In this document: positions 1,354 through 3,262 of the stretch, in pieces | Layout: every line of letters begins with the position of its first letter | Position numbering within the stretch: the stretch's first letter is position 1 | IMG/VR virus record: IMGVR_UViG_3300017910_000188 | Location: 1-26,818 of that record | Length of the DNA: 26,818 bases | Reading direction: 5' to 3' (one strand) | From: a virus | Lineage: Duplodnaviria; Caudoviricetes | The notes under the pieces: model-generated | The model's input: only the letters and a program-made list of their open reading frames with translations | Told to the model about the DNA's origin: nothing | Databases searched by the model: none | Program-made: the position numbers and the translations under genes

Positions 1354-1749
1354 TTAGATGCGCCTCCCAAATGGCACGTTGATCGAGTATTTTTCGACAA
1401 GCAGTCTACTCAAGACCTCGTAAATGTCGTTGACTTCCATAGGATTGATCTTCCTCGTGGACTCAACGCCGGTTACTGCTTTCTGGATAGGTCGCCACAT
1501 GTAATCCTTAATCAGGTACATAGTGGGTTCGATAGGTACGCCGTCTTTGATGACGGTCTTCATGTCCATACCGTGCGCCGCCATAACACTAGCGACCTCA
1601 CGGCAATAAGCATGGATAGCATCGTTCTGCTTTCCGGTTCGGGTGACAGGGATAATCTCGTAGATATGACCCTTGTCCTGATTAGCCCGGATGTACTCAC
1701 AGAACTGATCGGCTTGGTACTTGTTGTTTACAAACCAGCGCTCGCTCAT
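1354..1749 (-). CDS. NinB/Orf-like recombination protein
   Basis: RTGKQNDAIHA and STRKINPMEVNDIYE resemble the NinB RSxxQN and STxxLxxxE motifs. ATGA coupling to the upstream gene. Confidence 0.65.
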   Translation of the reverse strand: MSERWFVNNKYQADQFCEYIRANQDKGHIYEIIPVTRTGKQNDAIHAYCREVASVMAAHGMDMKTVIKDGVPIEPTMYLIKDYMWRPIQKAVTGVESTRKINPMEVNDIYEVLSRLLVEKYSINVPFGRRI

Positions 1750-2123
1750 GCGGTTACTCGCTCGCCTTCAAACGTCACGTACTGCCCATACTTTTCGAGA
1801 CAATATGCTCGATAGCTTTCTGATTTCATAAAGTCGTGGGTGATATCGTCTGCGAAGCTCCAGCTCTTCAGTCCGATTTTACCACTATTTTCTTGTAATT
1901 TCGCGGCAAATGGGGACACTCCTCTTTCTTGCTGGGATGCCCGGCTAAGCCACGCTTGTGCAAATCGCTTGCCATCCTTCTTACGTTTCTTTGGATTAGC
2001 GTCACACCATGCGGCCATCGCACTAAGCTCGGCAAAGATATCCACCTTCGGAAAAGCATTCTGCCAGTAGATAATCTGCTCATCGTCGGGTTCGTAGTAA
2101 GTACCGTCATTTAAAATAATCAT
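1746..2123 (-). CDS. Phage replication protein: stand-alone C-terminal domain of a replication initiator/replisome organiser
   Basis: FPKVDIFAELSAMAAWCDANPKKRKK...RFAQAWLSRA resembles the C-terminal helical domain of phage initiators. ATG 2123 fits the SD (AAGGGAAG) better than GTG 2129. Confidence 0.6.
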   Translation of the reverse strand: MIILNDGTYYEPDDEQIIYWQNAFPKVDIFAELSAMAAWCDANPKKRKKDGKRFAQAWLSRASQQERGVSPFAAKLQENSGKIGLKSWSFADDITHDFMKSESYRAYCLEKYGQYVTFEGERVTA

Positions 2124-2140
2124 CCACACTTCCCTTTTGA

Positions 2141-2311
2141 TGCCGGAGCAAGCTCCGACAAATCAGTTAGTTAATAATGACGAGCTATGATTACTGTATC
2201 GAATCTTGACATCTATCCGCTTGATCTGCTCTCGACCAGCGGGGCGCATCATAGAGAGGGTCAACTCCGTCTCCGACGTTCTTAGGTTCGTCGGCCTAAC
2301 GCCCAGTAATC
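2141..2311 (-). ncRNA. Candidate structured cis-regulatory RNA (multi-stem, two pseudoknot pairings) in the leader of the replication gene
   Basis: Complementary blocks 2189-2196/2304-2311, 2273-2278/2289-2294, 2282-2286/2295-2299, 2206-2210/2260-2264, 2212-2216/2251-2255, 2217-2221/2238-2242 and 2243-2246/2300-2303. An 8-bp G(CUUG)C hairpin at 2141-2160 lies next to the SD. Confidence 0.55.
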
Positions 2312-2372
2312 TCTGACAAAAAAGTAGATGAGAGGAAACACGGAATGGTTTTGTAGTGTATAATCCATTCAT
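2163..2372 (-). CDS. Possible leader peptide (69 aa) spanning the structured RNA
   Basis: Its ATG overlaps the TGA of a 10-aa uORF (ATGA). No recognisable protein family; may be non-coding. Confidence 0.3.
   Translation of the reverse strand: MNGLYTTKPFRVSSHLLFCQRLLGVRPTNLRTSETELTLSMMRPAGREQIKRIDVKIRYSNHSSSLLTN
2359..2364 (+). promoter_or_regulatory. Perfect -10 box (TATAAT) of a putative antisense promoter
   Basis: TATAAT lies 7 nt upstream of a stem-loop array that ends in a plus-strand terminator. The -35 match is weak (GAAACA, 18-nt spacer). Confidence 0.5.
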
Positions 2373-2401
2373 CTTCTTTGTTGACCCCTTGAAGATACCA
2401 C
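2369..2401 (-). CDS. Putative 10-aa uORF (GTG start, MVSSRGQQRR)
   Basis: GGAGG (2412-2408) lies 6 nt before GTG 2401. The TGA overlaps ATG 2372. Confidence 0.35.
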   Translation of the reverse strand: MVSSRGQQRR

Positions 2402-2455
2402 GTAGTCCCTCCCTTGGACAAGTGACTCCTAGCCCCCGTAATGGGGGCTTTTTTA
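2371..2455 (+). ncRNA. Candidate antisense small RNA (~85 nt, three stem-loops)
   Basis: Bounded by TATAAT and a plus-strand terminator. SL1 is ATCTTC/GAAGAT (2371-2396), SL2 is GTCC/GGAC with loop CTCCCTT (2405-2419), and SL3 is the terminator. Confidence 0.55.
2431..2455 (+). terminator. Rho-independent terminator oriented against the genes
   Basis: AGCCCCC-GTAAT-GGGGGCT followed by TTTTTATT on the plus strand. There is no U-tract on the minus side. Confidence 0.8.
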
Positions 2456-2659: not shown

Positions 2660-2880
2660 GCTTGCTCCTTGTATGGCAGATCAAGGAACGTCTCAAAGTC
2701 CATATCGAAACGCTCCGCAAAATCAACTATCCGGCCAAGGCTTGCGTCCTTGCTCTTGCGCCATCTGCCGATAGTCATCTCAGTCACGCCAAACTCTTCC
2801 GCCAGTTGCTTGTTACTGACACGGAATTGTTTTTGTGCTGTCCGCAACGACAGACCAATATCAAAATGGAATGTCGTCAC
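2656..2880 (-). CDS. Cro/CI-type HTH transcriptional regulator
   Basis: VSNKQLAEEFGVTEMTIGRWRK forms the HTH. The start is probably GTG 2880 rather than 2973, because the longer version overlaps the SSB-like gene by 113 nt. Confidence 0.8.
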   Translation of the reverse strand: MTTFHFDIGLSLRTAQKQFRVSNKQLAEEFGVTEMTIGRWRKSKDASLGRIVDFAERFDMDFETFLDLPYKEQA

Positions 2881-3262
2881 TGAACTGCTCGGTTGCGGCT
2901 GAGGTGGCGAGGGTGCTTCTGACTTGCTGAATGCCATCCGCATGAACTTTTGCCGGGTTGTTGAACTGGGCACTTGGAATCTCCTGTGATGCTGATTGAT
3001 CTTCAGACAATGCCGCTTTAGCTTTGTCTATTCCCTCTTTTCGAACGCGCTCTTTATACTCGCGGGTTTCATCATCAACCTTGGTGTAAAGATTGCCACT
3101 GCTTTTAGCGATCAGTGTTTCGATATAGATAGTATTTTCCGGCTGTTCTTGTAGCCACGGGATGAACTTTTCTCGATCAATGGTCTGCTTTAGCACAGCC
3201 CAATCTGGCGCATCTTCTTTGCGATTAGGCTTCATGCCATTTACAAAAGTAATATCAGCCAT
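2861..3262 (-). CDS. Putative single-stranded DNA-binding protein
   Basis: Low-complexity linker and C-terminal SDDIPF (SSB-type tail). Lies directly downstream of an annealing-protein-like gene. Confidence 0.65.
   Translation of the reverse strand: MADITFVNGMKPNRKEDAPDWAVLKQTIDREKFIPWLQEQPENTIYIETLIAKSSGNLYTKVDDETREYKERVRKEGIDKAKAALSEDQSASQEIPSAQFNNPAKVHADGIQQVRSTLATSAATEQFSDDIPF

Follow-up and report, generated by a model that had tools for sequence, protein, structure and literature searches.

Features of the locus

The window is the whole stretch of DNA analyzed, 26,818 nucleotides (nt), which comprises positions 1 to 26,818 of the Caudoviricetes (Duplodnaviria) virus record IMGVR_UViG_3300017910_000188; all coordinates refer to it. 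A preliminary description made from the sequence alone had listed along the minus strand a Shine-Dalgarno (SD) sequence with a short upstream open reading frame (uORF), a 69-codon ORF coupled to it by ATGA, a hairpin with a CUUG loop, and the SD of an initiator-like gene, and on the plus strand a TATAAT box, three stem-loops, and a terminator. Each of these features lies where it had been placed (Table 1). The 18-nt spacer of the predicted sense promoter holds both the SD and the GTG of the uORF. The 69-codon ORF has no Pfam or PHROG family match, and its stop lies 40 nt before the ATG of the initiator-like gene. The leader hairpin P0 encloses the antisense promoter, and the antisense RNA would target the first ∼15 nt of this hairpin. 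The antisense promoter was not listed by a plain promoter scan because it has no good −35 box in the source genome, and we placed the antisense start 7 nt past the −10 box. Folding was modestly better than that of shuffled sequences for both the minus strand at 2110 to 2460 (z = −2.6) and the plus strand at 2369 to 2458 (z = −3.0).

Table 1. Features of the module and its flanking genes in the window
Feature	Position	Strand	Remarks
Cro/C1-type HTH gene	2656-2973	minus	Weak PF01381/PF13443 and PHROG repressor matches
Winged-helix gene PF14090 (HTH_39)	2459-2659	minus	Upstream of module
Predicted sense sigma-70 promoter	2421-2392	minus	−35 TTGTCC 2421-2416; TGn; −10 TATCTT 2397-2392
uORF	2401-2369	minus	GGAGG, then GTG at 2401; 10 codons; stop TGA 2369; judged incidental
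69-codon ORF	2372-2163	minus	Start in ATGA overlap at 2372; judged incidental
Predicted leader hairpin P0	2385-2315	minus	Predicted +1 2385 to 2369 paired with 2331-2315
Structured RNA core, ∼135 nt, pseudoknotted	2311-2178	minus	
Core P1	2311-2304/2196-2189	minus	
Core P2	2303-2299/2247-2243	minus	
Core P3	2294-2273	minus	
Core P4		minus	Loop ACCCU
Core P5	2242-2217	minus	
Core UUCGAUA loop	2203-2197	minus	T-loop-like
Core pseudoknot	2185-2182	minus	GCUC at this position with P5 loop GAGC
Small hairpin, CUUG loop	2160-2141	minus	3′ end of module; pairing kept despite differing sequences in relatives
AAAAGGG	2138-2132	minus	Conserved; SD in source genome; candidate RNA-to-DNA switch site
Initiator-like gene, 125 aa	2123-1746	minus	ATG 2123
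Antisense −10 box TATAAT	2359-2364	plus	
Predicted antisense RNA, ∼86 nt	2371-2456	plus	Three hairpins; ends in intrinsic terminator
Antisense terminator	Stem 2431-2449, T run to 2456	plus	

The neighbors of the module are genes for a Cro-like HTH protein, a PF14090 winged-helix protein, a NinB-like protein, and a metallophosphoesterase. As called, the cro-like ORF overlaps an upstream SSB-like ORF (2861 to 3262), and the relatives suggest a true cro-like start near 2877 (about 73 aa). A 388-aa HTH plus metallophosphoesterase gene (170 to 1336) is conserved downstream in the relatives inspected.

Relatives of the module and fate of the leader ORFs

By scanning viral and metagenome collections with the protein and with motifs, we obtained at least 169 distinct modules, each with at least 175 nt upstream. 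Among the modules listed, the initiator-like gene follows directly in at least 55 and after other genes in at least 81, while at least 32 are cut short and 1 has no initiator-like gene. At loci with enough DNA, the gene for the initiator C-terminal domain follows the core in 136 of 137, and other genes stand between in 81 of these 136, which does not fit the control of the initiator gene as a coupled unit that had been proposed. Since varied genes follow the module, it appears to act as a unit with start signals for whichever gene comes first. The position corresponding to the 2123-2124 junction is a gene insertion hot spot in relatives, where many unrelated small genes, HNH and PD-(D/E)XK nuclease genes among them, come first; the end of an inserted gene often coincides with the initiator start.

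A uORF of 6 to 16 codons with an SD is present in 33 of 162 modules and is coupled by ATGA in 26. The frame is open across the core in 60 of the 162, the core has frameshifting indels, and core lengths fall into modulo 3 classes of 93, 35, and 34 modules. We judged both the uORF and the 69-codon ORF to be probably incidental, and the tap/repY-type mechanism built on them is not supported: the leader ORFs are not conserved, and the supposed SD and GTG coincide with a conserved sense promoter. The placement in a podovirus was also too narrow, as the module is also present in a relative whose genes include a tape measure and siphovirus-type tail genes.

Among cultured phages and plasmids, sequence searches gave terminator-length matches only, and the protein gave one distant match among cultured phages, the replisome organizer of a Ruminococcus phage. 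The core was not found in the bacterial genomes searched, nor was a plasmid or small circular carrier of the module found in the collections searched. One genome among the relatives (G004; L573 and L574) apparently has two head/portal modules, and the record may be chimeric.

The core is a covarying, pseudoknotted RNA fold

We aligned 31 core sequences without a structure model. In this alignment, 98.0% of the cells in P1 to P5 and the pseudoknot are paired and 20 of 35 pairs change on both sides, a result reached by 0 of 500 shuffles, with slid controls at 31 to 43% paired; the pairing noticed in the preliminary description is thus borne out by covariation. RNAalifold recovers the identical nested fold. 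Two of the four pseudoknot pairs covary in the same alignment, and in distant members we found by eye a P5 loop CGGU with the partner ACCG. G-U pairs place the predicted fold on the mRNA-sense strand, and many junction bases are invariant. Covariance model R1 found distant core members at E values of 3e-12 to 4e-4, and model R2 found seven more; in the model-fitted alignment, which leans toward the model, 24 of 31 core pairs covary. An extra hairpin of 27 to 37 nt before P3 is tolerated by the core at L098:2555-2750, L615, and L646.

Against Rfam, the module has no gathering-level match and matches no known riboswitch or ribozyme family; the weaker hits are terminator driven. Contigs from seven RNA runs cover the core, and these contigs carry no strand, ends, or level. 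Whatever its function, the core appears from these alignments to be a real, uncatalogued, strongly conserved pseudoknotted RNA family with deep covariation, and it can be replaced in nature by another core and is accompanied by a defined protein, as described below.

Predicted facing promoters and the antisense cassette

Without anchoring, the sense promoter scored 8.8 at best versus 6.3 in shuffles (162 blocks). For the finer analysis, 136 of 158 blocks were anchored, and the following counts are partly circular since anchoring demands TAnnnT boxes. The sense −10 box reads TATCTT in 84 anchored blocks, TAGTCT in 34, TATCAT in 13, and otherwise in 5, with TGn in 99 and a −35 box matching at 4 or more of 6 positions in 87. 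The antisense −10 box is conserved in the same blocks, as the preliminary description would predict, and reads TATACT (61 blocks), TATAAT (46), TAAACT (12), TACAAT (7), or otherwise (10), which looks like the variation that a −10 box should have. The sense start near 2385 is supported independently because the first bases pair in a lineage-specific way with the bases just before the core: a 5′ end forms a duplex of −11.0 kcal/mol with its own partner versus −6.5 kcal/mol across lineages, and its own partner is better in 100 of 107 cases.

Given a predicted sense start at about 2385, the ∼86-nt antisense RNA would overlap the inner transcript by ∼15 nt; in 104 modules the predicted overlap is 12 to 18 nt, and its first 9 nt take 61 forms in 136 blocks. 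Full overlap would occur only with read-through RNA from upstream. The inner promoter is missing from a subgroup of about 14 of the 22 unanchored blocks, in which the antisense RNA could act only on read-through RNA; some members of this subgroup have an SD and ATG at that place. Candidate antisense RNAs of relatives have a median length of 84 nt, and the three hairpins recur in 131 of 133; folding energy does not favor the antisense strand (46 versus 86 of 133). The proposal of antisense control stands insofar as the counter-transcript cassette is conserved, but most distant relatives carry the core without it.

When we blocked the antisense target, the computed accessibility of the SD fell from 0.55 to 0.28, with a drop of more than 0.2 in 42 of 70 modules and a rise in none, and P1 mostly stayed (0.83 to 0.71). 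By this computation, some translational effect of the antisense RNA is possible. We rejected a conserved helix between the P0 partner and the SD (−10.8 kcal/mol versus −10.1 with a shuffled partner, n = 102) and also a conditional terminator, since several lineages lack the U run that follows P0. The promoter/terminator scan lists no minus-strand terminator, and we found no conditional leader terminator of the pT181/pIP501 type. At four distant relatives (L646, L604, L620, and L648), a second antisense-like cassette, with an A run, a terminator hairpin, two hairpins, and a facing −10 box, lies over the leader of the cro-like gene, just upstream of that gene.

AAAAGGG and the distant members

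The P4 loop reads ACCCT together with a downstream AGGG in 140 of 144 modules, and the other 4 have ACCT or ACTT with AAGGT. This suggests a long-range contact between the P4 loop and AGGG, although the four covarying cases could reflect as few as one or two events. In the source genome and in about half of the 140 close modules, AAAAGGG is spaced from an ATG as an SD would be. At 14 distant loci, AAGGG lies 60 to 71 nt past the core and is followed by a tract of 70 to 87% AT, and in 13 of the 14 the next ORF begins at least 82 nt beyond AAGGG. A GC hairpin with a separate AGGAG comes after the AT-rich tract. Two of these 14 loci were flagged for the antisense cassette and a third was recognized by eye; the others have promoter-like boxes directly before P1. 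The pattern at the distant loci therefore suggests that the core and AAGGG are constant, that the antisense RNA is optional, and that AAGGG is more than an SD. The GC hairpin just before the SD is conserved at L637:∼1985-2005 and 13 similar loci and is a possible primosome or primase signal. A DnaA-box-like TGTGGA follows AAAAGGG and is absent from some lineages.

An unrelated core behind the same promoter pair

Relatives without the main core carry behind the same promoter pair an unrelated conserved sequence of ∼220 nt, which we call type B (examples, L116:975-1397 and L505-L565). The same initiator-like gene lies downstream in 56 of 56 examined. Type B has no Rfam match. Its proposed fold, with crossing helices, is 98% paired, but covariation is limited to 1 of 30 pairs (17 of 500 shuffles); with too little variation for proof, this fold is weakly supported. 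A comparison of type B with the Aeromonas primer RNA (z = 3.2 in one of nine comparisons, with 30 shuffles) was not accepted. A third noncoding cassette of ∼350 nt precedes the stand-alone domain at L602:2055-2500, where by eye we noted an A run, a long hairpin, and a facing −10 box.

The downstream gene encodes a headless initiator domain

The gene at 1746 to 2123 has itself no Pfam or PHROG family match. Its first ∼70 residues, which are DnaT/DnaD-like and precede a ∼55-aa tail, match the C-terminal part of 55 proteins of 234 to 302 aa (E down to 2.5e-16); 22 of these 55 carry the replisome organizer N-domain PF09681, and the fused homologues match PHROG replication initiation families. By these matches, the 125-aa protein is a stand-alone C-terminal domain of phage replisome organizers that lacks the N-terminal DNA-binding domain, and the earlier link to replication is upheld. 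Its predicted structure (pLDDT, 84) ranks the DnaT-single-stranded DNA (ssDNA) complex 4OU6 third of 48,161 chains, a weak match within background (Z, 3.9; rmsd, 3.9; 64 aligned); 2ZC2 is likewise weak (Z, 3.5), and a Foldseek search with the model gave no match.

When loci were picked by the domain, 78 of the best 80 of 439 had it stand-alone and 2 had it fused. A core is present at 71 of the 78 stand-alone loci (65 of the main family and 6 of type B). Among the seven without one, five have 764 nt or less upstream, and L579 and L602 have neither known core. No core was found at either of the 2 fused loci among the best 80 of 439, nor at L039 or L040; these four are the fused initiators inspected, and all are distant. 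Family searches of 86 of 95 ORFs, drawn from two complete-rated records of which one encodes T7-like tail proteins and the other a tape measure, gave no polymerase, primase, helicase, loader, or integrase; many ORFs have no family, and a diverged replication gene may be among them. Direct repeats of 8 nt or longer are absent from the module. The PF14090 winged-helix gene lies upstream in 60 loci, lies downstream in 16, and is absent within 1.3 kb in 20 (96 loci), which suggests that it is not obligatory. A SAR86 MAG has a stand-alone domain gene among chromosomal genes (L375:3995-4429), and the context of L579 is similar; this is too weak a basis to name a host.

Comparison with known systems

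In the lambdoid cro-cII-oop-O-P arrangement, the origin lies 5′ of the initiator C-domain. The module shares the order of a cro-like gene, an HTH gene, a short antisense RNA, an initiator, and a ninB-like gene, but it is without iterons, an N-terminal domain, and a P/DnaC-like gene, and its antisense RNA stops 3 nt before it would reach the upstream ORF. In IS10 RNA-OUT/RNA-IN, the target is the ribosome binding site; facing promoters, a short overlap, and a hairpin loop that is predicted to capture the target's free 5′ end are common to both systems, whereas the target here is a leader hairpin before a structured core. R1 CopA/tap/repA and IncI/IncB Inc/repY/repZ likewise have a counter-transcript before a replication gene and a pseudoknot. 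In the module, the pseudoknot is inside the core, no conserved leader ORF is coupled to a rep start, and the gene is not a full Rep and is often not first.

RNA-only origins have been described for ColE1-type plasmids (PMC8683028) and for the MRB plasmids of Vibrionaceae (PMC3035462). As the ColE1/pMB1 account presents that system (PMC8683028), the module resembles it in its Rep-less layout, in a long folded sense RNA with a conserved A run near its 3′ end, and in a short three-hairpin antisense RNA with its promoter inside the leader stem. Here the latter arrangement is predicted, we saw no origin-binding Rep and no iterons, and the PF14090 gene is dispensable as counted above. The differences are that the sense RNA is ∼250 nt instead of ∼550 nt, that RNA I is fully complementary to the 5′ ∼100 nt of its primer while the overlap here is the short one given above and the antisense RNA is missing from most distant relatives, and that the module has no G run and sits in a phage with a headless initiator gene. 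Rfam RNA I has no match in the module. With models R1 and R2, nhmmer, and profile comparison, we found no homology to the ColE1, Aeromonas, Vibrio, or Pasteurella primer RNAs; neither model matched RNA II in the 16 plasmid loci searched, and profile comparison gave z values of −0.5 against the enteric set and 0.1 against the Aeromonas set, with a positive control at 84. A homology to ColE1 drawn by eye from shared short words in order was rejected, as several of the words are absent from other members of the ColE1 family.

The MRB origins, as that report describes them (PMC3035462), are similar in being marine and RNA only, with a small antisense RNA whose variable loops set incompatibility, and different in having a 68-nt RNA I with two hairpins and an origin of ∼500 bp. 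Neither pES213 nor pVCG1.1 was matched, and the conserved ∼110-bp RNA I region is absent from the module. ARRPOF, GEBRO, and PAGEV are the nearest in status: they are described as covarying motifs of 220 to 350 nt linked to replication by context, but they are plasmid borne (PMC5737381), and none is among the Rfam matches of the module. Our best inference is that the module works like ColE1 or MRB origins yet belongs to neither. We found no description of the element in the literature; the motif was not found in the supplements of PMC10690425 that were searched, but the element may be among the candidates of that study.

A candidate RNA-primed origin and its alternatives

An RNA-primed (R-loop) origin working like that of ColE1 is our best reading of the module, and we hold the chances that it is correct to be about even. 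RNA would be made from about 2385 by the predicted host-type promoter. Its pseudoknotted core would keep it bound to the template close to AAAAGGG, further downstream; there it would either serve as a primer for DNA synthesis or make the duplex accessible to the stand-alone DnaT-like protein. Host RNase H, Pol I, and primosome would be used, with host enzymes extending the primer, and the DnaT-like protein would help to load the host helicase. The antisense RNA would be an optional add-on, with a 5′ hairpin loop that catches the first ∼9 nt of the sense RNA; binding would open P0 and lower output, and the variable loop could provide phage-specific exclusion or copy control.

We favor this origin because the core co-occurs with the stand-alone initiator domain and is absent from fused ones, because replication enzyme families were not found in the two complete-rated records, because AAGGG and the AT-rich tract are kept in distant loci far from an ORF, and because the unrelated type B core replaces the main core behind the same control block. 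The module also lies just 5′ of the initiator C-domain, the place of the origin in lambdoid phages. Replication is known to start from R-loops in ColE1 and T4, and the R-loop start of constitutive stable replication needs PriA, PriB, DnaT, and Pol I, according to one account (PMC5333043). The reading is weakened because there is no homology to known primer RNAs, because there is no G run like that of ColE1 RNA II and the AU-rich 3′ tail is poor for an RNA-DNA hybrid, and because no plasmid-like carrier was found and AAAAGGG is also at SD distance in the source genome.

In a translational switch or riboswitch-like leader, AGGG would act as the first gene's SD, and the core, a protein, or a ligand would set whether it pairs with the P4 loop or a P0 partner freed by the antisense RNA, thereby controlling the initiator operon; this reading seems unlikely to us. 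It would account for the drop in SD accessibility, the aptamer-like wealth of invariant junction bases, and the inserted genes that end on the initiator start. The P4 loop and AGGG do change together in 4 modules, but as one or two events perhaps; the P0 partner pairs with the SD no better than a shuffled one, 13 of the 14 distant loci have AAGGG far from any start codon and an SD of their own, and the first gene varies widely and can be a nuclease gene. The core directly follows a predicted promoter and stands first in an operon, in a genome where nearly all genes run one way; such a position would suit an antitermination RNA of the kind known from HK022 put and Bacillus EAR, which act in cis; the nascent core would modify host RNA polymerase for read-through of the long genome, and the antisense RNA would block it. 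No N/Q-type family was found in the ORFs of the two complete-rated records. We consider this improbable: it does not account for the association with the headless initiator, for the AT-rich tract, or for the missing origin, and Rfam gave no match.

Marginally less probable again is a fold of ssDNA, a primosome assembly or helicase-loading site on the displaced sense strand that is bound by the DnaT-like protein, with transcription serving only to open the duplex. It shares the co-occurrence evidence with the origin reading and has 4OU6, an ssDNA complex, in its favor, and covariation fits RNA or ssDNA alike and cannot separate them, as noted for the plasmid motifs (PMC5737381). The frequent G-U pairs, the pseudoknot, and the T-loop-like UUCGAUA are features of an RNA type, however, and P0 pairing starts at the predicted +1 in both core types. 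The literal model, in which translation of the uORF, coupled to the 69-codon ORF, opens the ribosome binding site of the initiator and the antisense RNA covers the uORF SD as in CopA/tap and Inc/repY, we think highly improbable. Both ORFs exist in the source genome, mRNA reading through from upstream would be fully complementary to the antisense RNA, and the subgroup without the inner promoter would suit it, but the coupled uORF and the open frame are found in the minority of modules counted above and the 69-codon ORF stops short of the initiator start.

Building on the RNA-primed origin, we offer a broader proposal that is tentative and on balance doubtful. A marine phage lineage may have replaced the origin-binding half of a lambdoid initiator with RNA. 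Two or more folded transcripts, unrelated to each other yet interchangeable, would specify the origin and recruit the stand-alone DnaT-like domain. The antisense cassette, which can be swapped and carries a hypervariable 9-nt key, would let one phage exclude another or would support a plasmid-like carrier state in the absence of integrase and partition genes. If the reading as an RNA-primed origin is true, the module would be a separate solution to the RNA-only origin, compact, nonhomologous, and the apparent sole origin in widespread uncultured marine phages, and it would explain how these phages replicate without recognizable replication genes. The 340-bp module would then be a candidate replicon.
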